A stretch of 64,000 nt of DNA from Candidatus Woesearchaeota archaeon (GTDB taxonomy: Archaea > Nanobdellota > Nanobdellia > Woesearchaeales > JAGLXL01). Numbering within the stretch: position 1 is the first letter of the stretch; the number at the start of each line of letters is the position of its first letter. The notes below the pieces were generated by a model, which worked only from the letters and a program-made list of their open reading frames with translations, ran no database searches and had not been told where the DNA came from. A program made the position numbers and the translations under genes. The DNA is taken from assembly GCA_030640025.1 (NCBI GenBank), contig DAOWKC010000002.1, positions 4,029 to 68,028 on the forward strand. Direction: 5' to 3'. Shown piece by piece: positions 2,563 to 62,235 of the stretch.

Positions 2563-2667
2563 GAATTTTCACTCCATTCAAATTCACTTACTGGTGCTCA
2601 CTTTGTTCAGCAAGTTTTGGAAAACTAAGTTTTCCAAACCGTTGAAAACCAGAGGTTTTCATAAGTT

Positions 2668-3603: not shown

Positions 3604-3605
3604 GG

Positions 3606-3683
3606 TGGAAGCCCCCGAGGAGATTTGAACTCCCGACCCTCAGTTTACGAGACTGATGCTCTGCCGGACTGAGCTACAGGGGC
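3606..3683 (-). tRNA. tRNA-Thr(CGT)
   Basis: The reverse complement folds as a cloverleaf: acceptor GCCCCUG/CGGGGGC, D-arm GUAGCUCAGUCCGGCAGAGC, anticodon stem UCAGU/ACUGA with loop CUCGUAA (anticodon CGU), and T-arm GGGAGUUCAAAUCUCC. CCA is not encoded separately, because the start codon of the radical SAM gene abuts it. Confidence 0.8.
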
Positions 3684-3688
3684 GAGGT

Positions 3689-3847
3689 TTAGATTTTTTC
3701 TAAGAGCTCTTCCTTTTTTGGGTGTTTCTTTTGGCAGTCTGGGCAGAGATAGTGTGGTTTACTGCTGCCGGGTTTTTTGATGATGGTGCCTTTGATTTTA
3801 CTGAGGAAGATTTCTTCGATTTTGTTTTTGCAAATTTCGCATTTCAT
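3689..3847 (-). CDS. small zinc-ribbon protein (CxxC...CxxC)
   Basis: MKCEICKNK...YLCPDCQKKH, with two CxxC pairs. The start is placed at the internal Met of the 77-aa ORF. Confidence 0.45.
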   Translation of the reverse strand: MKCEICKNKIEEIFLSKIKGTIIKKPGSSKPHYLCPDCQKKHPKKEELLEKI

Positions 3848-3920
3848 ATCAGGGTTTTGAGGTTGAGAGTTTATATAAGTTTTGTTAAAGTTTATAAAAA
3901 GAAAAAGAATTCTAAAGTTC

Positions 3921-4382
3921 ATGTACCCACAAACTCATTTTTTAACAGCGCTGTTCTTGGCCTTGATTTTAGTAAAGTTAGAAGTTTTGGGTTATTACGG
4001 AGCTTTGGTTTGTGCGATATTGGCAGTTTTGATGGATTTAGACCATTGGATTGCTTTTGTATTTAAGAAGCACAAAGTTAGTTTTTTGAAAGCCTGGAAT
4101 GCAGCAACAGTAAAGCATGCAGATTGGGAAAGAACTTTTGTCCATCATAAACTAGGGTTTGGGATTGTGTCAGTTATTCTTTTGATATTCTTGTTGTTTA
4201 ACAGATTGGTTTTTTGGGTAGTGGGAATTGCTTATTATTCGCATATGTTTTTAGATTATGTCCATGGAGTTGAAAGGAAAAAATATAGATTCAGAGAACT
4301 GGGATTTTTCTTTGAGATAACTTGGTTTGAATTGGCTTTGGATGTTGTTTTATTGATTGGGATTGTTCTGATTTTGGTATAA
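3921..4382 (+). CDS. membrane-bound metal-dependent hydrolase-like protein (DUF457/YdjM-like)
   Basis: Multi-TM ORF with an LMDLDHW / HMFLDYVHG histidine-aspartate pattern typical of membrane-embedded hydrolase folds. Start inferred at MYPQTHFL. Confidence 0.4.
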   Translation: MYPQTHFLTALFLALILVKLEVLGYYGALVCAILAVLMDLDHWIAFVFKKHKVSFLKAWNAATVKHADWERTFVHHKLGFGIVSVILLIFLLFNRLVFWVVGIAYYSHMFLDYVHGVERKKYRFRELGFFFEITWFELALDVVLLIGIVLILV

Positions 4383-4415
4383 ATATTTAAATATGTTGAA
4401 GTAAAGCTTAGACTT

Positions 4416-6179
4416 ATGGCTAAAAGGATTTGTGTAGTAGAAAGAGAAAAATGTCATCCGACTAAATGTGGTGATTATTTGTGTAAAAAGCTGTGTCCAG
4501 TGAATCGGACTGGCAAAGATTGCATTACAGTTAATGAGGATGACAAAAAGGTCAGGATAGATGAATCCCTATGCACTGGCTGCGGCATTTGTCCAAAGAG
4601 GTGTCCTTTTGGTGCATTGCATATTGTAAATTTGCCTGAAGCACTTGAGAAAGACCCAATTCATAGGTATGGAGAGAATCAATTTGAATTGTTTTCTTTG
4701 CCAACACCGGTTTTTGGCAAGGTGGTTGGTATTGTTGGCCGTAATGCGGTGGGTAAGTCGACAGCGATAAAAATATTAGCTGGTGTTTTGAAACCGAATT
4801 TAGGTCAGGTAGGTGGTGAGGCTGATTTTAAGGATTTGATTGATTATTTCAAGGGTTCTGAGATTCAAACTTTTTTGGAGAAAGTCAGGGACGGTGAAAT
4901 CAGGATCTCTTACAAGCCGCAGCAAGTTGATTTGATTCCGAAAAAGTTTGCAGGAAAAGTTGGAGATTTGCTTCGTGGTGTGAATGAAACAGGTGAGATG
5001 GACAAGATTGTTTCAGAATTGGATTTAGGGAATATTTTGGATAGGAAATTGCGTGAGATTTCTGGCGGTGAACTGCAGAGAGTGGCGATTGCGGCAACTG
5101 TTCTTAAGAAGGCTAATCTGTATATTTTTGATGAGCCAACTTCTTATATGGATATTAAACAAAGACTGAAAGTTAGCAAATTCATCCGTGGGTTGGCAAA
5201 AGCTGATACTGCTGTTTTAGTAATTGAACACGATTTGATTATTTTAGATTACATGACAGATTTAGTCCATATTATGTATGGTCGGGAAGGAGTTTATGGG
5301 ATTGTATCTGGATTGAAAAGCACTCGAGAAGGCATTAATACTTTTTTAGAAGGATATTTGCGGGAAGAGAATATCAGATTTAGGGATCATACAATCAAGT
5401 TTGAAAGAGTGCCGACTGTTGATCGAGGCGGGTCAATGGTTTTATGTTCTTGGAAGGATGTGGAGAAAAGATTAGATAGTTTTAGTTTGAAGGCTAAAGG
5501 GGGAGAGATTTTCAAGAATGATGTGATTGGGGTTTTAGGCGAAAATGGAATTGGGAAGACGTCTTTTGTGAAAATATTGGCCGGGGTTTTGGAAGCTGAT
5601 AAAGGTTCGGTGGGGTATGAAGTAACAGTGGCTTACAAGCCACAATATTTAGAAGCTGAAAGTGAGGCCACGGTGTTAGAAGTTTTGCAAGAGGCGATTT
5701 CGAAATATAATAATCAAATCATCAAACCTTTGAATATTCCACGATTGTTTATGAAAAAATTAAATCAGTTATCTGGTGGTGAGCTGCAGAGAGTGGCAAT
5801 TGCCAAGACTTTGGCTGAAGAGGCTGGTTTGTTTTTGCTGGATGAGCCGTCTGCTTATTTAGATGTTGAGCAGAGATTGTTGATTTCTAAGATTATTAAG
5901 CAAGTGGCTGAGGAACGGGAGGTAACGGTTTTAGTGGTTGACCATGATTTATTGTTTTTAGATTATTTATCAAACAAATTAATGGTGTTTGATGGTGAGC
6001 CAGCGATTTCTGGAGAGGCGAAGGGGCCTTTTAAGATGGAAGAGGGCATGAATATGTTTTTGAAAGATTTGGGGATTACTTTTAGACGGGATGTTAATTC
6101 TAACCGGCCTCGGGCAAATAAGGTTAATTCTGTTAAAGATCGTGAGCAGAAGAAAGAAGGGAAGTATTATTATTCTTGA
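4416..6179 (+). CDS. abcE1: ABCE1 / RNase L inhibitor-type ribosome recycling ATPase
   Basis: N-terminal 4Fe-4S ferredoxin cysteine clusters (CHPTKCGDYLCKKLCP ... CTGCGICPKRCPF), followed by two ABC cassettes with Walker A GRNAVGKST and GENGIGKTS and the signature LSGGELQRVAIA twice. Confidence 0.9.
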   Translation: MAKRICVVEREKCHPTKCGDYLCKKLCPVNRTGKDCITVNEDDKKVRIDESLCTGCGICPKRCPFGALHIVNLPEALEKDPIHRYGENQFELFSLPTPVFGKVVGIVGRNAVGKSTAIKILAGVLKPNLGQVGGEADFKDLIDYFKGSEIQTFLEKVRDGEIRISYKPQQVDLIPKKFAGKVGDLLRGVNETGEMDKIVSELDLGNILDRKLREISGGELQRVAIAATVLKKANLYIFDEPTSYMDIKQRLKVSKFIRGLAKADTAVLVIEHDLIILDYMTDLVHIMYGREGVYGIVSGLKSTREGINTFLEGYLREENIRFRDHTIKFERVPTVDRGGSMVLCSWKDVEKRLDSFSLKAKGGEIFKNDVIGVLGENGIGKTSFVKILAGVLEADKGSVGYEVTVAYKPQYLEAESEATVLEVLQEAISKYNNQIIKPLNIPRLFMKKLNQLSGGELQRVAIAKTLAEEAGLFLLDEPSAYLDVEQRLLISKIIKQVAEEREVTVLVVDHDLLFLDYLSNKLMVFDGEPAISGEAKGPFKMEEGMNMFLKDLGITFRRDVNSNRPRANKVNSVKDREQKKEGKYYYS

Positions 6180-6310
6180 ATAAACTGAGAGAACTTAATT
6201 TCTTAAAAATTAAGTTCTTTGGTATACAAAAGTATGGAATAAAAATTCCATACTTTAAGTAAAATTTAGTTTAGTAACGCTTATATATGCTAATTTTTTG
6301 ATTTTAAGAT

Positions 6311-8074
6311 ATGTGTGGTATTATTGGTTATAAAGGGGGCAAGAACGCTGTTAAAGTTGTTTTGAATGGTTTGAAGCGGCTTGAGTACAGAGGTTATGAC
6401 AGCTGGGGAATTGCGGTAAAAGATGGGAATATTAGAACAGTTAAAGATATAGGTAAAATTGGAGCTGTTTCTGAAGAAGATTTGAAATTGGGTTCGGCTC
6501 AGATGGCAATTGCGCACACTCGTTGGAGCACGCATGGAGAAGTTAATCAGATCAATGCTCATCCTCATCTTTCCAATAATAAAAGAATTGCAGTAGTGCA
6601 CAATGGGATTGTAGAAAATTATGTCAAGCTGCGTGAGTTTTTGAAAGAAAATAATTTTGAGTTTTATTCCGGGACTGATACAGAAGTGATTCCAAATTTA
6701 ATTGAGTTTTTTATGGAAGAAGGAGTTAGTTTTAAGGGAGGTGTTTCTAAGGCTTTGGCAATGTTAGAAGGGAGTTTTGCAATTGTAGCAATGCATCAAG
6801 ATTATCCTGAAATAATTGGGGCTCGAAATGGAAGTCCATTAGTGGTAGGCAGAAACAATGGTGGATTTTTTATTGCTTCTGATGTACCAGCTTTTTTAGA
6901 TTTGACCAATGAGGTTTGTTATTTAGATGACAAGGAAATGGTAATTGTTGGTGAAGGAATTGATTTTTTTGATTTGAGTGGAGTTAAGAAGGAAAAAGAA
7001 TTTCAGTTTATTGACTGGACACTTGAGCAAGCTGAGAAAGGAAATTATGATCATTTTATGCTGAAAGAGATTATGGAGCAGAAAGAAACTATCAAGAAAT
7101 CAATTGAACAAGATGATAAAAAAATTTTAGAGATGGCTGATTTGATTAAAGAAGGTTATGGGGTTTTTTTTGTGGCTTGTGGAACTGCTTCGTATGCGAC
7201 CCGCATTGGCGGTTATTTATTTTCTAAGATTGCCAAGAAGCACGTCAATGTAGTTTGTGGTTCGGAGTTTCCTTATTACAAAGATTTTTTGACAGATAAA
7301 ACTTTGATGATAGTTGTTTCACAGAGCGGTGAGACAGCTGATACAATTGGAGCGGTCAAAGTGGCCAAAGAAAAAGGTGTTAAAGTTCTTTCGATAGTTA
7401 ATGTGATGGGTTCGACTTTGATGAGAATGGCTGATTATTCTTTTTTAACGAATGCTGGTCCTGAGATTGGGGTGGCTTCGACAAAAGCGACCACAGCTCA
7501 AATTGCACTTTTGACTTTGCTGGCTTATGCTTGTAATGGCGGTCTTGAGGAGGGCAAAGAAGTTTTGAAGAAGTGTGTTGAAGAGTCACAAGAATTGTTT
7601 GATTCTAAATTTGTTGACAAGATTGAGGGGCTGGCAGATAAGATTGTGAATTATAATGACATTTATGTAATTGGCCGCGGCACTAATTTTCCTGTGGCTT
7701 TAGAAGCAGCGCACAAAATCAAAGAGGTTTCTTATATTCATGCTGAGGGTATGGCTGGCGGTGAATTAAAGCATGGAACAATTGCTTTGATTGATAAGGG
7801 AACACCATGTATTTGTATGGTTTCTAATGATGAAGCTAAAAATGACATTATTTCAAATGCCATGGAGATAAAGTCTCGAGGTGGATTTATTATTGGTATT
7901 TCTCCAGAAGACAATGAGATCTTTGATTTTCATGTTAAAGTACCAGATGTAGGCGAGGCATCAGCCATTGTTAATTTAATTCCAGCGCAGATGCTGGCTT
8001 ATTATTTGGCGGTAAAGAAAGGTTTTAATCCAGACTTTCCTAAAAACCTTGCAAAATGCGTAACAGTCAAATGA
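6311..8074 (+). CDS. glmS: glutamine--fructose-6-phosphate aminotransferase (isomerizing)
   Basis: MCGIIGY N-terminal nucleophile, a GATase class II domain, and two SIS domains. 587 aa. Confidence 0.9.
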   Translation: MCGIIGYKGGKNAVKVVLNGLKRLEYRGYDSWGIAVKDGNIRTVKDIGKIGAVSEEDLKLGSAQMAIAHTRWSTHGEVNQINAHPHLSNNKRIAVVHNGIVENYVKLREFLKENNFEFYSGTDTEVIPNLIEFFMEEGVSFKGGVSKALAMLEGSFAIVAMHQDYPEIIGARNGSPLVVGRNNGGFFIASDVPAFLDLTNEVCYLDDKEMVIVGEGIDFFDLSGVKKEKEFQFIDWTLEQAEKGNYDHFMLKEIMEQKETIKKSIEQDDKKILEMADLIKEGYGVFFVACGTASYATRIGGYLFSKIAKKHVNVVCGSEFPYYKDFLTDKTLMIVVSQSGETADTIGAVKVAKEKGVKVLSIVNVMGSTLMRMADYSFLTNAGPEIGVASTKATTAQIALLTLLAYACNGGLEEGKEVLKKCVEESQELFDSKFVDKIEGLADKIVNYNDIYVIGRGTNFPVALEAAHKIKEVSYIHAEGMAGGELKHGTIALIDKGTPCICMVSNDEAKNDIISNAMEIKSRGGFIIGISPEDNEIFDFHVKVPDVGEASAIVNLIPAQMLAYYLAVKKGFNPDFPKNLAKCVTVK

Positions 8075-40936: not shown

Positions 40937-41773
40937 ATGTATTTTAACTTGCAAAATAAGATGAGATATATTATTATTTTATTATTGGTTTTAGTGGTAT
41001 TGACTGGGTGTCAAGGAAATGAAGTTGTTTCTGAATTAGAAAGCAAGTCATTAATGATGAATTTCACTGCTGATAACCCAATTAGAAAGTATAATGTGTT
41101 AGTTTATTCAAATAAAGATTATTCTTGGTCATTGTCTAATCATTATGAAGTGATTGGTTCTGACGAGGGAAAGCTTTCAGAAGAGTCATTTAATCAAGTT
41201 ACTATGGAGTTGGAAAAATCTGGTTTTTTTTCTGAGTTTAATGAATGTAAGGAAATGGTTTTTAAAATAACTGGAGGAGAGAGTTACTGGATTTATTTTA
41301 AAGATGGAACTAGGGAAAAACAAATAGATCCTGGTGATTACACAAATTATGATAATGAGGCAGAAAGATACTGTATCCAGTGGGAGCCAACAAATAAGAT
41401 GTTGAGACTTTTAGATCCAGACAAAGTTATTTTTGAAACTAGGTATGATCCTGAAGAGAAAGAAGAGGAGGAAGAGGAAGAAGAGATGCCTGAATTTGAG
41501 ATTACTGAAGGGATTACAGTCAAGTTAGTGGAAATTTCTGGCGGTGGTTTTGTTGAGGCTGCAGGATATTATGAAGGAACTTTAAAGTTAAGGGGTGTTG
41601 GGGATGACGAAGAGTATACTATATTTGCTTGTTCAAAAAGCTGGGATTGGGTTAAACAAGATGGTTGTTATAAATTTGATAAAAGTGAAGTAGATAAGAA
41701 TGTAGACAACCATAAATTTTCTGCTGAGCTGAGCGGCTGTTTTGTTGGGCGTCTGGCAGAAACTAGTTGTTGA
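40937..41773 (+). CDS. putative lipoprotein / secreted protein with an acidic (EEKEEEEEEEE) linker
   Basis: Signal peptide with a lipobox-like LTGC, and no catalytic motifs. Confidence 0.45.
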   Translation: MYFNLQNKMRYIIILLLVLVVLTGCQGNEVVSELESKSLMMNFTADNPIRKYNVLVYSNKDYSWSLSNHYEVIGSDEGKLSEESFNQVTMELEKSGFFSEFNECKEMVFKITGGESYWIYFKDGTREKQIDPGDYTNYDNEAERYCIQWEPTNKMLRLLDPDKVIFETRYDPEEKEEEEEEEEMPEFEITEGITVKLVEISGGGFVEAAGYYEGTLKLRGVGDDEEYTIFACSKSWDWVKQDGCYKFDKSEVDKNVDNHKFSAELSGCFVGRLAETSC

Positions 41774-44395
41774 TTATTCTTTTTTGAACCTTGATTTAAT
41801 CAAAGCAAAATTAACCGGGTTCTTAATCTTCTTGCATAAAGGTTCAGGATGGCAGACATTGAAGGATTTGTAGTAGTCTGGGTGGCTGCAGTTTGGCGGG
41901 AGGATGGGTTTTTTGTTTTTGGCGCTGTTAAGCTGGCCAAGGAGAATATTTTCTCTGAGAGATTCAGGTTGATTTCTTTTGTTCCAGTCCAAGAGAAATG
42001 ATTTGATTTCTTCATGACCCCAACCGCATTTTTTTAAGAAATTAATGAGGATGAAAGTGGAACGTTTTTTGCCGTCTTCGAGTCCTTTGAGGATTCGATG
42101 AATGCAAGGAGGAAAGCAATTTTCTGGAATGGCATTTTCTGGTAAAGGCATTTCTCGTCTTTGGATTTGTATTTCTTCTTCTGGCATTTTGAAATCAAAG
42201 GCTTGAACTAGCAAGGATTTGGCTTCATTAGGTTGGGCTTTTTTGTCAAGGAAAACAAACTCTGAAACTGGGCAGCCTGGTTTGGCCTGGTTTTTGGTGA
42301 ATTCTAATATTTTTTTGGGGTTGATGGGTATGGAGACAAGACCTGATTTTTCATGTAAAGAATAAGGAGCACGGTAAAGGTGTCTCGATGAAATTAATAA
42401 GGTGTCGATTTCTAAAAAAGGTTCAACATCTAAAGCAGGGATTTGTTCACCAAATTCATTTCTTTGGTAGCGGATAATATTTTTGGTTTCCAGGCCGGTT
42501 TTTTCCTTGATTTTGTTGAAATCACTATTTTCTAATTTGAGGATTTGCCGGCTGAGCGGGTTTTTGATTTTTTCAGTAATGTAGAAAGCGATCCTTCGGG
42601 GTGCTTCGGGAAAAAGGTCTTTTATTTCTTGGTTATTGATTTTTTCTGGAAAGGCTTCAAAAGGAACAGCAATATGGAAGCCTTTGTTGCCAGAATTGTG
42701 CAGTAAAACAGGATAAACGCCACCAAAAAAAGCCTCAGTGTCTGATACTGAAACATCATAAACATTTTCTTTTTTACTTTTTACCATTTTTTTAATTTTA
42801 ACAGTAGCGATGTCATTATTGAACAATTTTTTGTAGTTTGAAATGATTTTCTTTGATTGATAATCATAATCAATAGATTTAGTTTTATCAAACCAGTCTA
42901 AGATTTTTTTTATTCTCTTTAGATTAGCTGATTTTTTCTTGAGACTCATCTGTTCTGTCCTGTGGTGGTTGAATTTTTTTGGTTTGATCTGATGATAGAC
43001 CTGCCTCAAGCCATCGACAGGGAAAACTTTGTCATGAGGATGTGGAGAAAATTTATTTCTTTCCCTGAAAAACTCATTTGAATTTAGTTCTGATTTAGGG
43101 ATATTCATAGTATAAACATGACTGCCTTTGAAGATGTTTCCTTGAGGTAATTCATGCTCCCTGCAAAATTCTTGATTGACAGAACACGAAATTCCATTCA
43201 ATTTAGATAGCCATACCAATTGAGTGATCAATTGATGAGAAACAGATTTTATTGTAATTGAATATTGGCCACGTTTATAACCATCTCCTCTGATGTAACT
43301 TTTTAACATCTCTTCGAAATACTCCTTAGGCAACTCCCAAGAAAACTCAGGAACATGCTTATTTTTTGCTCCCTTACCACAGCTTTTTTCAAAAAAATGA
43401 TACCATTCTTTTGAATGAATTAAGATTTGTGTCGTTTTGGGATTTGGATGTCTGATTGAAATAAATCTTTTGGTAAATCTTTTCAATAAATTAACACAAT
43501 CAGAAATATAATCTTTTTCGTCGATGTGAAAAGAAAAACCTATTTGATATATTGTTTTAGTGATATGGCCTTCAGCCAGATAGTAGCCCAATAATCTCAT
43601 TAAATCCCTGTTTATTTTAATTTCCCTTTTAGTTGGCTTTTTATTATAATCAAATTCCCAACTAAAATATTCTGGTTCTTTTGTTAGATTATTTGAACTA
43701 TTAAAAGTAATCAATTCATCAGAATCTTTTAATTCATTTACTTTTTTTTGGATAATAAAACCCCTGTTCCAGACAAAAACTGAATGGTGTTTGGTGGCTT
43801 TGATAGGTATTGTGCTATGGGCATGGTGGATTTCATAAATTTTCTCTTTATGGGTCAAATAGTCGTATACTTTAGAAAAACAAACTTTTCTTCTTTTATT
43901 TAAAGATAAAACTTGGATTTTTTTACCCGATTTATGGAGTTCGATTACTTTGGCAATCGGAACAAGACTAATAGTTTTATCTGTTTTTATTAGTAAGGGT
44001 GTGTCTCCAGTAACACTAAATTTGATAGAATAAGATTTGATTTTGTTGTAGTCAAGGAATTTGATGATTAAGTGAGCAGCTATTTTGGAATATTCAATGA
44101 ATTTACAGTCAATATCAAGGACAAGGTCCCAGCCAATTCTTAAGTTGTCGAGTTCTCTTTTTTTGAGGTCGGGGTTGAGTTGGAGGGGATTAAGCCAGCG
44201 TTCTTCTGAAGTATGAAAAGAAGTAGCGCCTTTTTTAGCTAATTCAAGAATATCATTAGGGTATTGTAAGATGTCAGGGCGTTTGCCGAATTTGTCTTCG
44301 TATCGAACGGTTGTTTCCCTACTTTCGACATGTTCAATCATGGCTTTTTGAATATCTTTTCTCTTGTAATGCTTGAGAAGGGTTGAGATATGCAT
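41774..44395 (-). CDS. priSL: fused archaeo-eukaryotic primase PriS-PriL (small catalytic subunit plus large-subunit Fe-S C-terminal domain), interrupted by an intein
   Basis: N-extein carries AEP motif I LVLDIDC. The C-extein starts with motif II SGNKGFHIAVP and ends with a PriL-CTD-like region CFPPCIHRILKGL...CGW...C...C (compare FPPCM of eukaryotic PriL). Extein total 432 aa. Confidence 0.8.
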   Translation of the reverse strand: MHISTLLKHYKRKDIQKAMIEHVESRETTVRYEDKFGKRPDILQYPNDILELAKKGATSFHTSEERWLNPLQLNPDLKKRELDNLRIGWDLVLDIDCKFIEYSKIAAHLIIKFLDYNKIKSYSIKFSVTGDTPLLIKTDKTISLVPIAKVIELHKSGKKIQVLSLNKRRKVCFSKVYDYLTHKEKIYEIHHAHSTIPIKATKHHSVFVWNRGFIIQKKVNELKDSDELITFNSSNNLTKEPEYFSWEFDYNKKPTKREIKINRDLMRLLGYYLAEGHITKTIYQIGFSFHIDEKDYISDCVNLLKRFTKRFISIRHPNPKTTQILIHSKEWYHFFEKSCGKGAKNKHVPEFSWELPKEYFEEMLKSYIRGDGYKRGQYSITIKSVSHQLITQLVWLSKLNGISCSVNQEFCREHELPQGNIFKGSHVYTMNIPKSELNSNEFFRERNKFSPHPHDKVFPVDGLRQVYHQIKPKKFNHHRTEQMSLKKKSANLKRIKKILDWFDKTKSIDYDYQSKKIISNYKKLFNNDIATVKIKKMVKSKKENVYDVSVSDTEAFFGGVYPVLLHNSGNKGFHIAVPFEAFPEKINNQEIKDLFPEAPRRIAFYITEKIKNPLSRQILKLENSDFNKIKEKTGLETKNIIRYQRNEFGEQIPALDVEPFLEIDTLLISSRHLYRAPYSLHEKSGLVSIPINPKKILEFTKNQAKPGCPVSEFVFLDKKAQPNEAKSLLVQAFDFKMPEEEIQIQRREMPLPENAIPENCFPPCIHRILKGLEDGKKRSTFILINFLKKCGWGHEEIKSFLLDWNKRNQPESLRENILLGQLNSAKNKKPILPPNCSHPDYYKSFNVCHPEPLCKKIKNPVNFALIKSRFKKE
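42695..44017 (-). mobile_element. 441-aa intein with LAGLIDADG homing endonuclease domain, inserted between F126 and S of the primase SGxxGxH motif
   Basis: Block A SVTGDTPLL (Ser1), block G VYDVSVSDTEAFFGGVYPVLLHN followed by +1 Ser, and LAGLIDADG motifs LLGYYLAEGHI and YIRGDGYKRG inside. Confidence 0.8.
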
Positions 44396-44596
44396 TTTTT
44401 TTGACAGAAACCCTGTCGTTCGCCATGCTTCATATCGTTGTAAATCTAATGAAGCACTATTGCTGTCTGACGATTAGTAAAGTAAGGCGCCATAAATTGC
44501 TACGCAATTTAAAGGTGGCTCACTTGCCCTTTGGCCAGGGTTTCTGTAAAAGCGTAAAGGACAAGGTTTAAAATGTTTTGTGGTTTTAGAGTGGGT

Positions 44597-44947
44597 ATGA
44601 AAGATGTTTATGATGAAATCATGGGATTTTTGAAGAGGATAAAAGAGGAAGATAAGTTAGTGATAGTGGAAGGGGTGAATGACAAAAGGGCATTGGCAAG
44701 TTTTGGGGTGAAGAGGGTTAAAACACTTTCCCGCCGGGCTTTGTATAAAGTAGTTGAGGAAGTGAGGGATAAGGATGTTGTTCTTTTGGTTGATTTGGAC
44801 AGGGCTGGTAAAAAATTGTATGCTTATCTAAATTCTGAGTTTTCCCAACGCGGGGTTAGGGTGGATAATAAATTCCGTGAGTTTTTGTTTCGGAAAACCA
44901 AGCTGAGGCAGATTGAAGGACTGAAAAGGTATATGGAGAGATTATAA
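44597..44947 (+). CDS. small Toprim-domain protein
   Basis: LVIVEGVNDKRAL (conserved Glu) ... LLVDLDRAGKK (DxD) is a Toprim fold. 117 aa. Transcribed divergently from the primase gene. Confidence 0.6.
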   Translation: MKDVYDEIMGFLKRIKEEDKLVIVEGVNDKRALASFGVKRVKTLSRRALYKVVEEVRDKDVVLLVDLDRAGKKLYAYLNSEFSQRGVRVDNKFREFLFRKTKLRQIEGLKRYMERL

Positions 44948-45232
44948 AAATTTAAAGCCGCAAGTTTCTTGAGTAAGATGTTCTTTTTGTGTTCGGGGGT
45001 ATTTTCTACAGTTTAATGGTCTAATCGGATGGATAGTACAATAAGAAGTGTTGTCTTTTCTGTATTTTAAAAAAAAGCATTTTTGGGGCAAGCGGCAGCA
45101 TTGGCCGCAATTTAAGCACTGACCAGTTCTACTTTTTGAAATAGGAAGAACAGAAGTTAGGGTTCTTATTATTTTTGACCAGTAATTATTCTTCATATTC
45201 TTTTTCAAAGACTTCTTTGAGTCTTTGGGCAA
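44942..45232 (-). CDS. YkgJ/UPF0153-like Cys-rich zinc/iron-binding protein
   Basis: CLNCGQCC...C motif. It overlaps the 3' end of hef by about 47 nt on the same strand. Confidence 0.4.
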   Translation of the reverse strand: MPKDSKKSLKKNMKNNYWSKIIRTLTSVLPISKSRTGQCLNCGQCCRLPQKCFFLKYRKDNTSYCTIHPIRPLNCRKYPRTQKEHLTQETCGFKFL

Positions 45233-50874: not shown

Positions 50875-51150
50875 ATGCTACAAATGAAGAAGATACGGGA
50901 AACCTATGATATGAAGGTGTTTACTGATCAAGGAGACTATTTTGGTGATGTTGAAGATTCTATTTTAACTGCGACTAAGGTTTTTGGCTGGAAAATTAAA
51001 GCAACAAAAGGTTCGTTTTTGACCAAGGTTTTGGGTTCAGCCAAAGGAGTAATTGTGCCACACCAATTAGTTAAGGCGGTGAGTGATATCATTATTATCT
51101 CCAAGACAGCAGTGCCAAATTATCCAGCTGAAGAAGGAGCTGAAGAATAA
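50875..51150 (+). CDS. PRC-barrel domain protein
   Basis: 91 aa, with the FTDQGDYFGDVEDSILTATKVFGWKI beta-barrel pattern. Confidence 0.45.
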   Translation: MLQMKKIRETYDMKVFTDQGDYFGDVEDSILTATKVFGWKIKATKGSFLTKVLGSAKGVIVPHQLVKAVSDIIIISKTAVPNYPAEEGAEE

Positions 51151-51177
51151 ATTTATTTTTTGATTTCTTTTTGAATA

Positions 51178-51759
51178 ATGAAAGGGGAAACTGAACTCAA
51201 ACTGATGCTTTATTTTACCGTAGGTTACCTCTTATTTTTCACAATTATTTCTGTTTTAAAACAAAATTATGAATTTTTGTATTACGCAATGATTATGACA
51301 GTACTGATTTTGATAGCGATTTTTTATCATAAGAAGCTTCACTTGCCAAATTATATTTTAGGGGGATTGAGTTTAGTGGGTGTGTTGCATCTGATGGGGG
51401 GGTTTCTTTTTATCGGCAGTACAAGACTGTATGACTTCTGGCTGATTCCTGGAATTTTCAAGTATGATAACCTCGTGCATTTAGTTGGTATTTTTGTAGT
51501 GACTATTTTAGCATATAATTTGTTATATCCCCACCTTGACAAGAAGATTAAGCATAATAAATTCTTGTTATCGCTGCTGTTGGTTTTGATTGCTTTGGGT
51601 GTGGGGGCCTTTAATGAAATTCTTGAATTAGTGGTGGTTGTTTTTTTACCGGCAGCACATGGTATTGGCGGTTATTTTAATAATGTTCTAGATTTGTTAT
51701 TTGGCTTGCTCGGCTCTATTTTCGCTGCTCTTTTAATTGTATACTGGAAGAAAAAATGA
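51178..51759 (+). CDS. membrane protein (5-6 TM)
   Basis: Hydrophobic ORF, 4-nt overlap with the next gene. Confidence 0.45.
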   Translation: MKGETELKLMLYFTVGYLLFFTIISVLKQNYEFLYYAMIMTVLILIAIFYHKKLHLPNYILGGLSLVGVLHLMGGFLFIGSTRLYDFWLIPGIFKYDNLVHLVGIFVVTILAYNLLYPHLDKKIKHNKFLLSLLLVLIALGVGAFNEILELVVVVFLPAAHGIGGYFNNVLDLLFGLLGSIFAALLIVYWKKK

Positions 51760-52397
51760 ATTCATTAAGAAATTTTTTATTCAATATTTTAGATAAACCA
51801 GGTTCATGGTTTACGACAAAAGGATACTTAAAATACTACAAACTAAAAGAAGGTGATGTAATTATAGACTGCGGAGCATATTTAGGATATTTTACTGTGT
51901 TTGCTGCCAAGAAAGTTGGGAAAAAAGGAAAAGTAATTGCCTTTGAACCAGAAACCAAGAATTATAATTTTTTAAAAAAAATAATTGATTCAGAAAAATT
52001 AGAAAATGTTATTGTTATAAAAAAAGCATTATATAACGAAAAAAAAGAACTGTGTTTCAAAAGTAGATTTATGTTTTCTTCTATTTCAAATAAAAAAAAT
52101 GTGTCTAAAGGAAAAAAAATTATTTCTACGACCTTAGACTATGAATTAGAAAGATTAGGCATCAAAAAAGTGGATTTTATAAAAATGGATATAGAAGGTG
52201 CTGAATTAGAAGCACTTGAAGGCGCTAAAAACACACTTAAAAATACATCACATTTAGCCATTGCCTGTTATCATATAAGAAATGGCAAAATAACAGGCAA
52301 AACCCTAAAACCTTTACTGGATGATATCGGCTTCAAGACTAAAATTGGTTTTATTTCACACTTAACCCTCTATGCTTCTAAAATACAAAAGCCTTAG
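51756..52397 (+). CDS. FkbM family SAM-dependent methyltransferase
   Basis: VIIDCGAYLGYFTVFAA...VIAFEPETKNY (the FkbM MT domain signature). Confidence 0.65.
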   Translation: MNSLRNFLFNILDKPGSWFTTKGYLKYYKLKEGDVIIDCGAYLGYFTVFAAKKVGKKGKVIAFEPETKNYNFLKKIIDSEKLENVIVIKKALYNEKKELCFKSRFMFSSISNKKNVSKGKKIISTTLDYELERLGIKKVDFIKMDIEGAELEALEGAKNTLKNTSHLAIACYHIRNGKITGKTLKPLLDDIGFKTKIGFISHLTLYASKIQKP

Positions 52398-52399
52398 AA

Positions 52400-53164
52400 A
52401 TGACAAAAGTAATATCTAACCCCTCGATTTTAAACAACAAGGAATTAAATTTTGTGGATATGCACCATCATTCGATTTTTTCTGACGGCAATAAAACACC
52501 AAAATACATTGCGAAATATTTTATCAAGAAAAAGAGAGGGGTGTGTATTGCAGACCACAATCAAATCAAAGGGGCTGTTTATTTAGCCAAGCAAAAAGAA
52601 TTATTTTCGATACCAGCCATAGAAATCACATCAAAAGAAGCAAAAGATATCTTAGGTTATTTTTATAATATTAGAGACCTGCAATCTTTTTGGGAAAAAG
52701 AGATTCAGAAAAAAATAAGGAATAATGCTTTATTTAATTTGAACAGAACAACACTGAGCATACATGATATTGTTGAAAAAATAAAACAATATAGTGGGAT
52801 TCCCATACTGGCGCATCCCTTTACATTTAAACCAAAAAACGCAGAGAAATTTTTGTTTGATAAAGATTTCATGAGGAAAATAAAAGGAACAGAGATATTT
52901 GCTTGTGGAAGAGCTAAAAATAATCAAATCAAGCTGATAACACAACTCAACAAACCAATAGTGGCAGGCAGCGACAGCCACTTAGTGTCTTCGCTGAATA
53001 CCTTGACAGGAAGTTATTTTTTTGACAAAGATAGTTTTTTAGATTCTATATTAAAAAAAGAGAATATAATCTATTACCAAAAAGAAAATTACTTTTTCAA
53101 AACATTTCATAATCTGATTGTTTTAAAGAATAATATACATCTAAAAGCACCGAAGAATTTTTAA
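52400..53164 (+). CDS. PHP-domain phosphoesterase
   Basis: VDMHHHSIFSDG N-terminal His triad and downstream His/Asp ligands (AHPF, GSDSH). Confidence 0.65.
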   Translation: MTKVISNPSILNNKELNFVDMHHHSIFSDGNKTPKYIAKYFIKKKRGVCIADHNQIKGAVYLAKQKELFSIPAIEITSKEAKDILGYFYNIRDLQSFWEKEIQKKIRNNALFNLNRTTLSIHDIVEKIKQYSGIPILAHPFTFKPKNAEKFLFDKDFMRKIKGTEIFACGRAKNNQIKLITQLNKPIVAGSDSHLVSSLNTLTGSYFFDKDSFLDSILKKENIIYYQKENYFFKTFHNLIVLKNNIHLKAPKNF

Positions 53165-53901
53165 TCGTTTTCTACTCTGGGTGCTAAGATAAAAGAAAGC
53201 ATGACTTTGTCGACAGCAAGATAATCTAATCTCAAAGGATAATCACTGTTGAATTGGATGTTGACTCTGTCAGCTAGTTTAGCTCCATCAATCATTTTCT
53301 TGAGATATTCAATGCTGTATTTGGCTTTGACTTTGTCATCAGAGGCTTTGATCTGGGTTTCGGTGCCGGCACTGATTTCGATCTTGGCTTTGGATAAGTC
53401 ACCTTCAGCAGAAACAACTAGTTTATTTGGGTCTCCTAAAAAGGTGACTGATTCAGCGACAACATCAACATCACTAATAGCTTCGCTTAAAACACTGGCG
53501 GGGGTGGTGACATTAATCGGAAATTTTAACTCAGGTATTCTTTGTTCTTTTTCTTCTAATTCAATTAAAGGGATGGAGAAAGTTCTGGTGGTATCGGATT
53601 TAAATTCAATTTTTAACTTGCCTTCAGCTGTTTCTAAAGTAACAACATCATTTGATTTAGAACGTCTGAGGACTTGTTTTAAGTTGCTTAAATTGATGGC
53701 AAGCTGTTCGTCTTTGTCAACATTAAATTCAGTAAAGGTTGAGGCAAGAAGTTTGAAAATAACCATGGCAACATTAGCTGGATCCATGGCCACAAGTTCA
53801 AAACCCTCTTTGGTGATATTAAATTTAGCTTCATTAACAAGCTCTGAAATAATAGAAATGCTATCTTTGAGATATTTAGGTTCGGCGAGAGTTAACTTCA
53901 T
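53161..53901 (-). CDS. pcn: DNA polymerase sliding clamp PCNA
   Basis: 246 aa, N-terminal MKLTLAEPKYLKDSISIISELVNEAKFNITKEGFELVAMDPANVAMV, with a two-domain PCNA pattern. Confidence 0.8.
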   Translation of the reverse strand: MKLTLAEPKYLKDSISIISELVNEAKFNITKEGFELVAMDPANVAMVIFKLLASTFTEFNVDKDEQLAINLSNLKQVLRRSKSNDVVTLETAEGKLKIEFKSDTTRTFSIPLIELEEKEQRIPELKFPINVTTPASVLSEAISDVDVVAESVTFLGDPNKLVVSAEGDLSKAKIEISAGTETQIKASDDKVKAKYSIEYLKKMIDGAKLADRVNIQFNSDYPLRLDYLAVDKVMLSFILAPRVEND

Positions 53902-56603: not shown

Positions 56604-58277
56604 TCACTTAAGAAGTTCTCTTGACCTTTTGTTCAAATCAGCAAAATAACCACGGATTAACTGAGTCATCTGATGAAAATAATTGAGGGCGGTGAGGGTT
56701 TCGTCTTGTTGTTGATAAGATAAATTAATAACTTTTTTGAAGAATTCTTGAGGTTCGCCTTCGGCTAATATCCCTGGGTCGCTTTGAAACCATTTGTATT
56801 TGACAACATCTTTTTCTCCGATTTCTTTCATAGTTGTTCTGACTGAATTACCAAGAGGGATTCCTAAAATAACATTTTTACCAAATAATTTTCTGGGGGA
56901 TTTATGATGTTGGATGTCATATTCTGGTTCTTTGGTAAAGGAAAATTGGAGCTCATAGTCTGTACTACCATACGTAAACCGATGCAATTTAATTTGAAAA
57001 TATTTGTTCTCGGCTTGAAGTATAAGGGTGGCCCAACACTCATTACCTTTTCGACTTTTGAGAGAAAAATCATAAGGGGGCTTGGAATTATCTGGACGGT
57101 AAACTTTAAATTCTCTTTTCAAAATGGCGAGTTGCGATAATTCACTGTGCAAAGTTAAAAATATTTCGTGGAGACCTTTTTCACCTAAACAACGTTCCTG
57201 CAGGGCTTGATAAGTCCCTTCATTTAAGATGGTAAGTGAGGATTGGTCACGGCCGAGATTAGGTAAATCGTTTCTAATTCTGATTAATTCCTTGTATAAT
57301 TGCTCTGTGTTTTGAAGTTGTTCTGATTCTTTTTGGGAAATACATTTTCTAAAAACTTGGTTGATTTCTTCAGGGATTTTGGAGTTGATATCTGAAGGGT
57401 CGTCTTTGAAGAGACTTTCCATTGGTAATTGATTAGTAAACATTTTATAAAGAAGTGTACCAAAAGCAAAAAGGTCGTCTTGAGAAACAGGTTTGCCACC
57501 TTTTCTTTGATTAGGTGACATATATTCAAAAGTTCCGACAGCTTCTGGATTGGTTTGGGAAAGAGAAGCAACAAGGGTATGAGTTAAACTAGATGATTTA
57601 ACTGTACTCAAACCAAAATCTGTAATTTTAACTTGATCGCCAGGAGTGATGAGAACATTGCCTGGTTTTAAATCCCGGTGAATAATTGTATGGTCATGAC
57701 AGTATTTCAAAGCATCGGCAATTTGGATAAGAATATCAAGACCGTAGGCAGTTGAAATAAATTCGCCGGCCTGAGATTTTTCTTCTAAGAGGCTGTCTAA
57801 ATCTTGGCCGTCAATATATTCCCTGACAAGCCAAGGTTTTTTTTCGTGGATACCGGCATCCAGAACTTGGACAAGATGTGGGTGTTGGAATTCTTGCTTT
57901 GATCCAAGAAGAATAGCAACCTCTCTTTGAAATTGACCAACATTATTATCGATTGTATCGTTTGAAATCTTAAAGGCAAAAGTTTCTCCTGGTTTGGTTG
58001 TATCGCTGGCTTTGTAAACAGCGCCAACAGCTCCTTCGCCAATTTTTTTACCGAGAACATATTTATCAATAGTGATTAGAGTTGGTTCTTCTTGAGGGGT
58101 TTCTACTGTTGGTGGTGATTCTTCAGAAGGTTCTCCTTCTGGAAGAGGTTGGTCTTCTTCAGTTGGAGCTGGGTCTTGAGATTCTTCTGGAGAGCTTTCT
58201 TCTTCTGGAGCTTCTCCTGCCGGTGTTTCTCTTTCAGGTTCTCCTTCTCTGGGAAGCAATGTTTCTCCTTCTGGCAT
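56604..58277 (-). CDS. Hanks-type (eukaryotic-like) Ser/Thr protein kinase with an acidic Pro/Glu-rich N-terminal region
   Basis: GEGAVGAVYKA glycine loop, catalytic HRDLKPGNVLI, DFG (ITDFGLS) and APE-like motif, plus about 230 aa of C-terminal non-kinase domain. Confidence 0.8.
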   Translation of the reverse strand: MPEGETLLPREGEPERETPAGEAPEEESSPEESQDPAPTEEDQPLPEGEPSEESPPTVETPQEEPTLITIDKYVLGKKIGEGAVGAVYKASDTTKPGETFAFKISNDTIDNNVGQFQREVAILLGSKQEFQHPHLVQVLDAGIHEKKPWLVREYIDGQDLDSLLEEKSQAGEFISTAYGLDILIQIADALKYCHDHTIIHRDLKPGNVLITPGDQVKITDFGLSTVKSSSLTHTLVASLSQTNPEAVGTFEYMSPNQRKGGKPVSQDDLFAFGTLLYKMFTNQLPMESLFKDDPSDINSKIPEEINQVFRKCISQKESEQLQNTEQLYKELIRIRNDLPNLGRDQSSLTILNEGTYQALQERCLGEKGLHEIFLTLHSELSQLAILKREFKVYRPDNSKPPYDFSLKSRKGNECWATLILQAENKYFQIKLHRFTYGSTDYELQFSFTKEPEYDIQHHKSPRKLFGKNVILGIPLGNSVRTTMKEIGEKDVVKYKWFQSDPGILAEGEPQEFFKKVINLSYQQQDETLTALNYFHQMTQLIRGYFADLNKRSRELLK

Positions 58278-60084: not shown

Positions 60085-62235
60085 ATGAAAAAATTGGTGT
60101 GGTTACTGGTCTTAGTTGTTTTCTCTCAGCTAGTTTTAGCTGAAGTAAGAATTAATGAGGTGATGTATGCTCCGACTAGTGATTGGGGCGGACAATATAA
60201 TGAATGGATTGAGTTATATAGTGAAAATGAAATTAATTTAAGTAATTGGAAAATTGATGGAAATGATTTTGATGATATTATAATTGGCAGTGGTGGTTAT
60301 GTAGTAATAGCTAGGAATGCAGTTGCTTTTCAAAATACTTATGGTTTTCAAGTAGCTGATGGTAATTTTGTTTTAAGTAATGATGGTGATGTGATTGAGC
60401 TGTCTAATGGAACTAAAAGTTGGTTGTTCCCTTATGACAATAATAAAGCAAATAATAATGGAAAAACTTTGGAGTGTGCTGGTGGTGAGTGTACTGGCGG
60501 TAATTGGGAAGATAGTTTAGTTTTAGGCGGAACTCCTTGTGAGATCAACAGCAAAGCTGGATTTATCCAAGATTATAGCCAGGTAAAAATAAATGAATTT
60601 TTGCCTGATCCAATTGGAAATGATGATGCAGATAAACCATTGGGTGAATGGGTGGAACTATATAATACAGGCAAGGCGCCAATTGATCTGCGAGGATTAG
60701 TTCTTTATGATAAAGATGATAGTCATGAGTTGTATATTAGTGATGTAACTACTACTGCTGGAACAGTAATTCCAGCTGGGAGTTATCTAGTTGTTTATCG
60801 AAACGGAGATACTGATTTTGCTTTGAATAATGATGGTTTTGAAGAAGTTCGTTTTTATGATGGTTATCCAGTAAATAACAGTAATTTGATTGATTCAATG
60901 AGTTACAGTGGAGGTGTGGAGGGGATGAGCTGGAGCAAAGTTAAGGAAGGATGGTATAAATCAACGGCAACTCTTGGAGGGGAGAATGTGAGGGTTGATG
61001 GTTGTGATTGGAGCGTTAAGGTTTTGCCTCGGAATTCAATTTTTAATTCTGGCCAAGGTTTGGTTTGGGATGTGGTTGTTGAGAGGAATTATGGTGAAAC
61101 AGGAAATTTGACAGTTGAGGGTCGAGTAGAAGATGTTTTTGGGAAAGTGGTGAAAACTTACAAGCCGTGGACAGATAAGGTGATTACAACAACTCGGACA
61201 AAAACTTATACTCCAAATTTACCCGAAGATATTTACAAAATATTTTTTGAAATTAAGGAAATTGACTGTCAGGACAATGACTTGAGTAATAATGTGGATT
61301 TTGATTTGGTGGTGATTAATCCTCAGTACAAGGTTTTTGATTCTAATTTAGAAATTGAGGAGATTTATCTAGGCAATGATGACGAAGCTGAATGGGGAGA
61401 TAGAGTAAGGGTGAAGGTTCATATTTACAAAGGTGATGAAACCAAATATAATGTTGAACTGTACGCTGAAAAAGATGGTCGAATTGTGAGTAAACGGACT
61501 AAGACGAGTGTTTTTGACAAGTTTAAGGATTATACTTTGACTTTACCAGTACAGTTAGAACCTAATTGCAACCAATATTATTTAGATGGTGATTATGAAA
61601 TGGTTTTGAAAGGTTTGGAAAAAGAAGTGAGAGAGGGTTTTAGGATTAAGGGGATTGACAAAGAATTATGTCAAGAAGTTAGTGGAAGTGTTTCTGGTTC
61701 TAGTCAAAAGTTTGGTTATAAATTAGTAGAAAGCCCAGATGAAGTTCAAGCAGGGGGAGATTTTGATGTCAAAGTTGAATTAACAGGTGATGATGAGGAG
61801 CATGATATTAAAGTCAAGAGTTATATTTATCGAGGTCCAAAACATTACAGTGAAGAGGTGATTGAAGAACTTAAATTAGAGGTGAACGAGATCAGGGTTA
61901 TTGATTTGAATTTAGAGGTTGATGAAGATGTTAAAGAAGGTGAATATAAGTTGAAGATTAAAATAAATAAAGATAATCAAAAAACTGATAAGGAAATAAC
62001 TGAGGAGATTAAAGTTCGAGAGACAGATGAAGATGAGGAATGCATGGTAGTGGGTGAGGAGTTGTCTGTTAGGAATATTAGTATAAATGAAAAATTAAGT
62101 TTGTTAAGGAGATTAAATGAAGACGGGAAGATTGTTTATCTTTCTAAATCAAAACAAAGTTTTGAATGGGTGCCGATGATGATTATTGGAGTTTTGGTTT
62201 TGCTTTTGGTGATACTTATCTGTAAAAAACTGTAA
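60085..62235 (+). CDS. cell-surface protein with two lamin-tail domains (LTD), signal peptide and C-terminal TM anchor
   Basis: Signal peptide MKKLVWLLVLVVFSQLVLA. LTD signatures INEVMYAPTSDWGGQYNEWIELYSEN and KINEFLPDPIGNDDADKPLGEWVELYNTG. C-terminal VPMMIIGVLVLLLVILICKKL. Confidence 0.75.
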   Translation: MKKLVWLLVLVVFSQLVLAEVRINEVMYAPTSDWGGQYNEWIELYSENEINLSNWKIDGNDFDDIIIGSGGYVVIARNAVAFQNTYGFQVADGNFVLSNDGDVIELSNGTKSWLFPYDNNKANNNGKTLECAGGECTGGNWEDSLVLGGTPCEINSKAGFIQDYSQVKINEFLPDPIGNDDADKPLGEWVELYNTGKAPIDLRGLVLYDKDDSHELYISDVTTTAGTVIPAGSYLVVYRNGDTDFALNNDGFEEVRFYDGYPVNNSNLIDSMSYSGGVEGMSWSKVKEGWYKSTATLGGENVRVDGCDWSVKVLPRNSIFNSGQGLVWDVVVERNYGETGNLTVEGRVEDVFGKVVKTYKPWTDKVITTTRTKTYTPNLPEDIYKIFFEIKEIDCQDNDLSNNVDFDLVVINPQYKVFDSNLEIEEIYLGNDDEAEWGDRVRVKVHIYKGDETKYNVELYAEKDGRIVSKRTKTSVFDKFKDYTLTLPVQLEPNCNQYYLDGDYEMVLKGLEKEVREGFRIKGIDKELCQEVSGSVSGSSQKFGYKLVESPDEVQAGGDFDVKVELTGDDEEHDIKVKSYIYRGPKHYSEEVIEELKLEVNEIRVIDLNLEVDEDVKEGEYKLKIKINKDNQKTDKEITEEIKVRETDEDEECMVVGEELSVRNISINEKLSLLRRLNEDGKIVYLSKSKQSFEWVPMMIIGVLVLLLVILICKKL

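Follow-up and report, generated by a model that had tools for sequence, protein, structure and literature searches.

Inteins cluster in replisome proteins, where their location in catalytic motifs is usual, since the target is invariant. The archaeal MCM, PolB, PolD DP2 and RFC inteins interrupt invariant catalytic motifs of essential replication proteins, are sporadic among related species and occupy several sites in some hosts (PMC4760082). In the main survey of archaeal inteins (Novikova et al., 2016), primase stood out as one of a small number of core replication proteins that lack them and was placed among the "critical proteins with no inteins" (PMC4760082). Classical PriS and PriL are reported missing from genomes of DPANN cluster II, where a widespread monomeric PriS-PriL protein is the sole replicative primase, with single-chain activity in Nanoarchaeum equitans (PMC10250227; bioRxiv 10.64898/2026.06.17.729505), and this monomeric form has been described as a synapomorphy of a large DPANN clade (bioRxiv 10.64898/2026.06.17.729505). 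Herein, a 64,000-nucleotide stretch from a Candidatus Woesearchaeota archaeon (assembly GCA_030640025.1, contig DAOWKC010000002.1, positions 4,029 to 68,028; hereafter the window) is described, in which a monomeric primase gene carries a full-length LAGLIDADG intein at motif II of its archaeo-eukaryotic primase (AEP) catalytic domain. Both parts, an ordinary LAGLIDADG intein and a DPANN monomeric primase, are known, and it is their combination, that is, the host protein and the insertion site, that appears undescribed. In the literature searched, the coverage of which was incomplete, no report of an intein in a PriS, AEP or DPANN primase was found, and in papers containing both "primase" and "intein" the inteins belonged to other proteins.

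The window primase resembles the NEQ395 type of N. equitans (DPANN cluster II) in combining AEP motifs I-III, a linker and a PriL-type domain with four conserved Cys residues in one chain of about 430-450 aa, in being chromosomal and in having no PriL N-terminal domain. Its homologues are labelled Nanoarchaeota, Woesearchaeota and Pacearchaeota, and membership of the NEQ395 type is assigned by architecture and these taxonomic labels, not by the NEQ395 sequence. Unlike the window primase, NEQ395 contains no intein, and neither do the best homologues, of which more than 100 were listed. An AEP domain and a PriL-CTD-like domain are also joined in one chain in PolpTN2 from a Thermococcus nautilus plasmid (PMC3973330). 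By its description, PolpTN2 differs from the window primase in being plasmid-encoded and highly divergent, and its abstract mentions no intein (PMC3973330). As for the intein, PI-PkoII (2cw7), TliVMA and PhoVMA (7qss, 7qst) and PI-PfuI (1dq3) likewise consist of a Hint domain split by a two-motif LAGLIDADG endonuclease, and a Foldseek search with the window intein recovered these solved structures at E values of 1.6e-22 to 1e-16 and TM scores of 0.60-0.73. Identity to the solved archaeal inteins is 15-19%, their hosts are DNA polymerase, V-ATPase and ribonucleotide reductase, none being a primase, and the window intein is set apart from them by Ser at both positions 1 and +1. The primase intein shares the catalytic-motif location, the sporadic distribution and the occurrence of several sites in some hosts with the MCM, PolB, PolD DP2 and RFC inteins, although identity to the RFC inteins is just 24-28%.

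The boundaries of the insert were established by removing it in silico. Against the whole precursor, Pfam returned Intein_splicing (aa 145-567, E 1.2e-11), LAGLIDADG_3 (aa 265-339, E 3e-6) and, above its cutoff, DNA_primase_lrg (aa 754-809, E 1e-6), with DNA_primase_S (aa 563-692, 21.0 bits) falling under its cutoff of 26.8. Removal of aa 127-567 left a spliced primase of 432 aa, in which DNA_primase_S covered extein aa 96-251 and rose over the cutoff, to 31.9 bits. The NCBIfam matches of the precursor comprised an intein N-terminal model and models of intein-bearing PolD, RpoA'' and V-ATPase. The spliced sequence was matched with 100% coverage by intein-free proteins of 433-449 aa (E 1e-251 to 1e-256); its four top relatives, 85-88% identical and 433-449 aa long, have no intein and include proteins labelled Woesearchaeota (P0001) and Nanoarchaeota (P0003). 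In an alignment of 121 sequences the junction was gap-free, and the restored block KFSGNKGFH was at least 95% conserved. In addition, a profile of the intein-free family split on the window ORF (open reading frame) into aa 1-127 and aa 560-872, and the intein profile covered aa 127-567. Because the Pfam cutoff was passed, the relatives aligned at full coverage and the junction was free of gaps, removal of aa 127-567 represents a true excision. With a slash marking each junction, the N-terminal boundary reads ...YSIKF/SVTGDTPLL at aa 126/127 and the C-terminal one ...VYPVLLHN/SGNKGFH at aa 567/568, and the ligated extein junction is predicted from the sequence to read ...YSIKFSGNKGFH....

Empty sites were found in two close intein-free relatives, L001 and L002, in which the gene order of the window (Hef helicase-nuclease, small Toprim protein, primase, ribosomal-protein genes) is preserved. 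The ribosomal-protein genes past the primase are S13 and S11 in both, and S4 was called in L001 as well. In the two relatives the uninterrupted primase site reads AAATTT/TCNGGCAA, and the DNA flanking the insertion point is AACCAAATCAAGTCTTATTCAATCAAATTT/TCCGGCAACAAGGGATTCCATATTGCTGTT. The anatomy of the element, its exact boundaries and conserved residues, the empty syntenic sites and, as described below, the recurrence of the intein at the same site are thus directly observed. A first-pass annotation of this DNA had proposed a single 873-aa ORF with LVLDIDC in its first 126 aa, a 441-aa insert and a 432-aa product, and these counts were exact. The direct run into block A SVTGDTPLL and the exit past block G, VLLHN/S, agree with the junctions as located, at which the splicing residues are invariant in primase inteins, and the proposed Hint/LAGLIDADG insert was recovered by Pfam as Intein_splicing and LAGLIDADG_3 within residues 127-567. 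The intein had also been placed inside the SGxxGxH motif; it does lie at motif II, but directly before the Ser, at the N-terminal edge, and not between residues of the motif.

Both functional parts of a primase are present in the extein. In AEP motif I, which forms a beta-strand (91-97) in the AlphaFold2 (AF2) model, D94, I95, D96 and C97 do not vary across 64 sequences. The same set shows invariant S127, G128, G131, F132 and H133 in motif II and D223, R230, H231, R234, E241 and K242 in the motif III region (extein numbering), and the motif III segment can be aligned to human and Xenopus Pri1. In the extein model, which has a mean pLDDT of 88.4, F126 ends strand 123-126, and motif II lies in the next loop and strand (132-136). 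Foldseek matched this model to Prim-PolC, the LigD polymerase domain, human Pri1 and Pyrococcus PriS (E 4e-9 to 3e-6). A direct sequence search of the PDB gave marginal PriS matches only (E 0.02-0.05), and fold and profile searches were needed. For the C-terminal part, DNA_primase_lrg scored 31.5 bits against a cutoff of 22.4, and the family profile matched residues 335-378 of P. abyssi PriL (9f26_B, E 2e-6), with NCBIfam PriL matches lying far under cutoff. Cys 764, 836, 848 and 854 (extein C323, C395, C407 and C413) are conserved in 96-100% of the 121 sequences. Among the Fe-S cysteines that the first-pass annotation had named, the second Cys of CFPPC (C764) as well as C836, C848 and C854 were borne out, whereas C760 (4%) and C790 of CGW (18%) were not. 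Altogether, the sequence and model evidence supports a fusion of two parts in the extein, the catalytic domain being an AEP of PriS type and the C-terminal one the Fe-S domain of PriL, in which cluster binding is predicted. The PriS-PriL fusion put forward earlier was recovered when the extein was aligned to both Pfam profiles, both being above cutoff once spliced, in agreement with AF2 and Foldseek.

The gene is best explained as encoding the replicative primase, chromosomal and in its monomeric form, of a DPANN archaeon (Woesearchaeota/Nanoarchaeota-type). The fusion itself is not new: the spliced sequence matches more than 5,500 protein clusters, with homologues of the same length and domains, and an arrangement that had been ascribed to "a few DPANN lineages" turned out to be standard in DPANN cluster II. 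Several primases (P0126, P0128, P0140, L012 and L028) contain a Cys-rich, zinc-ribbon-like insertion of about 80-100 aa between motifs II and III. This insertion, which has several CxxC pairs and is common in Pacearchaeota- and Woesearchaeota-type primases, does not occur in the window protein.

The insert is a full-length canonical class-1 intein, made up of a Hint domain and a LAGLIDADG endonuclease of the two-motif, monomeric type, as judged from sequence motifs and the structural model. In block A, S1, V2, G4, D5 and T6 are invariant in seven primase inteins, and the same junction recurs in 31 genomes; T75, H78, S79 and V80 of block B are invariant in primase inteins. The first LAGLIDADG motif contains LLGYYLAEGH, and the pattern G[YH][FY]LxxGH occurs in 30 of 30 full-length genome copies. 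The second contains YIRGDGY, in which D245 and G246 are invariant, and is kept in the same 30 copies. Block F reads (N)VYDVSV...FF and block G LLHN, followed by Ser+1; V419, Y420, D421, F430, F431, G432, H440 and N441 are invariant in primase inteins, and all 64 primases compared share the +1 Ser. The Pfam scores were 47.5 bits for Intein_splicing (cutoff 35.8) and 31.2 bits for LAGLIDADG_3 (cutoff 22.5).

The AF2 model of the intein (pLDDT 85.9, pTM 0.86) was matched by Foldseek to PI-PkoII (2cw7, E 1.6e-22, TM 0.73), the TliVMA intein (7qss, TM 0.72/0.73) and PI-PfuI. It also matched mini-inteins in the PDB, and its middle part matched I-DmoI, I-Tsp061I and the endonuclease domain of PI-PkoII. 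By sequence, PI-PkoII was again the nearest solved relative (phmmer E 2.7e-14, residues 254-460). The endonuclease is separated from the Hint strands at the C-terminus by a conserved and largely helical region of some 80 aa (intein ~330-400). The GC content of the intein is 30.7%, against 38.0% for the exteins, which places it at the 2nd percentile among window segments of the same size. Low GC was considered as evidence of foreign origin and set aside as only suggestive, three other window segments being as low. The coordinates of all features are collected in Table 1.

Table 1. Features of the intein-bearing primase gene and of other parts of the window (positions refer to the 64,000-nucleotide window; aa, precursor residues).
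Feature	Positions	Strand	Description	Basis
Primase precursor ORF	41774..44395	(-)	873 aa + stop; monomeric PriS-PriL primase with one intein	ORF list, domain matches
N-extein	44018..44395	(-)	aa 1-126; first AEP part, ending ...YSIKF	In-silico splice; gap-free alignment to 120 intein-free homologues; profile A1 positions 2-128
Intein	42695..44017	(-)	aa 127-567 (441 aa); Hint, inserted LAGLIDADG endonuclease and helical region	Pfam, AF2, Foldseek
C-extein	41777..42694	(-)	aa 568-873; remaining AEP domain, linker, PriL-CTD	Profile A1 positions 120-436; alignment
AEP motif I	44105..44125	(-)	LVLDIDC, aa 91-97; metal-binding DxD, D94 and D96	Alignment, model
AEP motif II	42674..42694	(-)	SGNKGFH, aa 568-574; S568 predicted +1 splicing nucleophile	Alignment
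AEP motif III region	42341..42415	(-)	LEIDTLLISSRHLYRAPYSLHEKSG, aa 661-685; second intein site here in L014	Alignment
PriL C-terminal (Fe-S) domain	41777..42136	(-)	aa 754-873	Pfam, P. abyssi PriL profile match, Cys conservation
Intein block A	43991..44017	(-)	SVTGDTPLL; Ser1 (precursor S127), predicted first nucleophile	Alignment
Intein block B	43775..43801	(-)	KATKHHSVF; TxxH = intein T75, H78	Alignment
First LAGLIDADG motif	43565..43603	(-)	LMRLLGYYLAEGH, aa 265-277; acidic Glu	Alignment
Second LAGLIDADG motif	43274..43309	(-)	MLKSYIRGDGYK, aa 363-374; acidic Asp	Alignment
Intein blocks F and G	42695..42766	(-)	NVYDVSVSDTEAF...VYPVLLHN; His-Asn end	Alignment
Lipoprotein-like gene	40937..41773	(+)	278 aa	
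Small Toprim-like gene	44573..44947	(+)	124 aa	
Cys-rich ORF	44942..45232	(-)	96 aa	
Ser/Thr protein kinase, eukaryote-type	56604..58277	(-)	557 aa	
Lamin-tail protein	60085..62235	(+)	716 aa	
Low-GC segment	~51062..53361		GC as low as in the intein or lower, with a minimum of 29.1% near 51824; ORFs 51178..51759, 51756..52397, 52400..53164	
Low-GC segment	22088..23796		GC at or below that of the intein	
Low-GC segment	32035..33705		GC at or below that of the intein	

The point of insertion lies within the conserved block KF/SGNKGFH, with F126 on one side and the invariant motif II Ser on the other. From these conserved features it is very probable that the gene encodes a monomeric primase with one canonical class-1 intein at motif II, and most likely the precursor would splice and the endonuclease would home. 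The 873-aa precursor would be translated and is expected to be catalytically dead, because a folded insert of 441 aa at the end of a core strand would part motif I from motifs II and III. The dependence of primase activity on protein splicing can thus soundly be inferred. Self-removal of the intein would follow the standard four-step route. An N-O acyl shift at Ser1 would lead to transesterification to Ser+1; the terminal Asn would then cyclise with the help of the penultimate His, and an O-N shift would complete the reaction. F126 would in this way be joined to S568, yielding a 432-aa primase with an intact KFSGNKGFH and a free 441-aa endonuclease. The latter would then cut intein-less primase alleles at the motif II coding sequence, upon which the intein would be copied in. 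Since the site is an invariant catalytic motif, such an intein should be hard to lose or evade: the motif II Ser cannot be changed by the host, and precise deletion alone would remove the intein.

A very different account would be that the gene is disabled, as a non-functional relic or an assembly chimera, with another primase at work. Of the roughly 636 kb of the contig the window covers 64 kb, which leaves room for another primase. Against a disabled gene, however, the frame is open over 873 codons, the AEP motifs and Fe-S cysteines are all intact, and the primase occupies a conserved syntenic position. A second record, MCK4589888.1, shares the 90%-identity cluster of the precursor, a cluster in which a partial protein is entered as "hypothetical protein [Nanoarchaeota archaeon]", and the same architecture recurs in 31 other genomes. 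In addition, the classical PriS and PriL that might take over are those reported missing from DPANN cluster II (PMC10250227; bioRxiv 10.64898/2026.06.17.729505). A disabled gene is therefore scarcely credible, and nothing contradicts the intein and primase anatomy.

The motif II allele is not confined to the window, the precursor of which is itself on record in NCBI/ENA, with identical sequence, on a 635,759-bp contig. All 31 matches among GTDB species representatives carry an intein at the same site (...KF/SV...), and the C-terminal junction ...LLHN/SGxKGFH is present in the 30 complete genome copies, the frames of which are open and free of stop codons. Carriers are labelled Woesearchaeota, Pacearchaeota, Nanoarchaeota, "Iainarchaeum" and, in two probably mis-binned cases, "Methanosarcinales". 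About 25 of the 56 nearest intein relatives sit at the motif II site in primases. Among the best 150 matches in a set of 50%-identity representatives, only a minority cover the intein part, most matching the exteins only. The labels "uncultured Methanosarcinales archaeon", "Minisyncoccales bacterium" and "Paceibacterota bacterium" are attached to intein-bearing primases of clear DPANN type (L004, L007, P0129 and P0137), probably through binning or labelling errors. A second insertion site was found in a Woesearchaeota metagenome-assembled genome, L014, where a 1375-aa primase (2590-6714) carries two LAGLIDADG inteins, one of them at the motif II site. The other (4585-6102, 506 aa) has the boundaries RAPY/S...ILLHN/SLHEKT and lies before the Ser of the invariant PYSLHEK past motif III; Pfam found two Intein_splicing and three LAGLIDADG_3 stretches in this primase.

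The same intein lineage (32-39% identity) was further found at the motif II site of P0136, P0139 and P0144, short AEP primases without a PriL domain, whose spliced exteins match the viral family phrog_16345 ("primase"). P0139 corresponds to L003:10001-12229; its intein is 39% identical to that of the window, and the first acidic LAGLIDADG residue is replaced by Asn. The L003 contig (53,856 bp) contains many small co-directional ORFs together with HNH, DUF932, YAcAr and a TnpB/Cas12f-like gene, and is probably viral. Since one intein lineage occupies the same site in these PriL-less, virus-type primases, transfer of the intein between different genes is implied by the sequences. No intein in a recognised virus was found in IMG/VR or among isolated phages: a scan of IMG/VR with the intein alignment gave 54 pattern stretches, none of which was confirmed, and tblastn against isolated phages returned just distant matches (28-30%) of the endonuclease domain in ribonucleotide reductase, portal and polymerase inteins. 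The L003 contig and the phrog_16345 matches are the sole viral link. A broader proposal, in which the motif II intein, with its second site PYS/LHEK, is actively exchanged between DPANN chromosomal primases and the AEP primases of their viruses and, in carriers, may gate replication initiation post-translationally, is put forward as a speculation that is unlikely to hold. If true, the primase intein would mark virus-host gene flow in a group with almost unknown viruses.

Several observations weigh against the reading of a splicing, homing intein and have to be set beside it. Across 406 carrier pairs, intein identity exceeded extein identity in 99% (mean 61.7% vs 48.0%), but the two identities are correlated (r = 0.81). 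Two histories fit this pattern: exchange of the intein among related hosts, or mostly vertical inheritance in which a constrained intein changes slowly while its host protein evolves fast. Higher intein than extein identity was tried as proof of horizontal transfer and is ruled out in that role by the correlation; horizontal transfer among DPANN primases is not proven. Splicing, endonuclease cleavage and homing are predicted from conserved residues only. Both nucleophiles are Ser and not Cys, and Ser nucleophiles, although common in inteins, sometimes go with slower splicing. The low GC of the intein amounts only to a 2nd-percentile anomaly that three other segments of the window match, and a second, uninterrupted primase could lie elsewhere on the contig, outside the 64 kb scanned.

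The correlation also speaks for another reading of the endonuclease. The intein may splice while its endonuclease is immobile, in which case it would be a vertical passenger that is slowly lost, and its patchiness would reflect losses only. In line with such a passenger, distant hosts yielded no near-identical inteins, identity to the window intein reaching just 64% in its nearest relative, and the Asn of P0139 replaces an acidic residue of the endonuclease. However, all 30 full-length genome copies retain both acidic residues and both motifs, and neither frameshifts nor mini-intein derivatives occur among them, which argues for selection on the endonuclease. An immobile intein is also hard to reconcile with the virus-type primases, which require transfer between genes, or with the excess of intein over extein identity in nearly all pairs. 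Purely vertical passage consequently has some chance of being correct, though a minor one, and a homing intein is preferred.

A further reading is that the intein is a conditional switch, slow or cue-triggered splicing (by temperature, metal, DNA or host contact) gating the primase and thereby replication initiation, post-translationally, in a host-dependent archaeon. The site, a catalytic motif of what is probably the sole replicative primase, would suit such a role, as would an intein more conserved than its host protein and the retention of the conserved helical region of about 80 aa. Precedent exists in other replisome inteins, DnaB being one example (PMC6195587). No regulation-specific feature was found in the intein, however, and Ser at both nucleophile positions makes the known redox (disulfide) mechanisms inapplicable. 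Furthermore, the closest relatives, at 85-88% identity, are intein-free, so the intein is dispensable, and selfish homing fully accounts for both the motif location and the conserved endonuclease. A regulatory switch is accordingly considered very unlikely, and selfish homing remains the favoured account.

These results add the archaeal (AEP) primase to the hosts of inteins, given its occurrence in 31 other species-level genomes, in virus-type AEP primases and in one two-intein primase. At least two insertion sites are used, each at an invariant catalytic segment. Intein-bearing primases are under-annotated by gene callers and by Pfam: deposited names include "hypothetical protein" and "LAGLIDADG endonuclease", and some related public sequences are annotated as "LAGLIDADG family homing endonuclease" or "intein/homing endonuclease". 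Because PriS stays under cutoff until the intein is removed, splicing in silico is advisable for inventories of DPANN replication genes and for primase phylogenies. An all-serine intein beside a small single-chain primase could, in addition, be used to test conditional splicing, or be adopted as a part for protein engineering. The biology is conventional and not surprising in principle, and its interest is for specialists in inteins and in archaeal replication.

A profile scan of the window identified one primase and one intein of the primase-intein family, with no others of that family, and GlmS, Topo VI-B, Hef and a large tRNA synthetase are of normal length. The Toprim-like gene is divergent from the primase and its Toprim matches are weak and under cutoff; a gene of similar size lies between Hef and primase in the intein-free L001 and L002, with weak Toprim matches for L001 only. 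The pairing of primase and Toprim protein may be functional. On the other side, the lipoprotein-like gene is convergent with the primase ORF, their ends exactly meeting; its product starts with a hydrophobic segment and then a Cys, contains a poly-Glu run and matches DUF6438 weakly. In L001 the corresponding place is taken by an unrelated-looking gene of 205 aa on the opposite strand, and in L002 there is no gene there. The Cys-rich ORF overlaps the ends of the Toprim-like gene and Hef, gives a sub-cutoff match to CxxCxxCC (putative zinc-/iron-chelating) and may be spurious, no counterpart being called in L001 or L002. Farther away, the window encodes a eukaryote-type Ser/Thr protein kinase and a protein with lamin-tail domains, and a lamin-tail protein is also located near the primase in L001.

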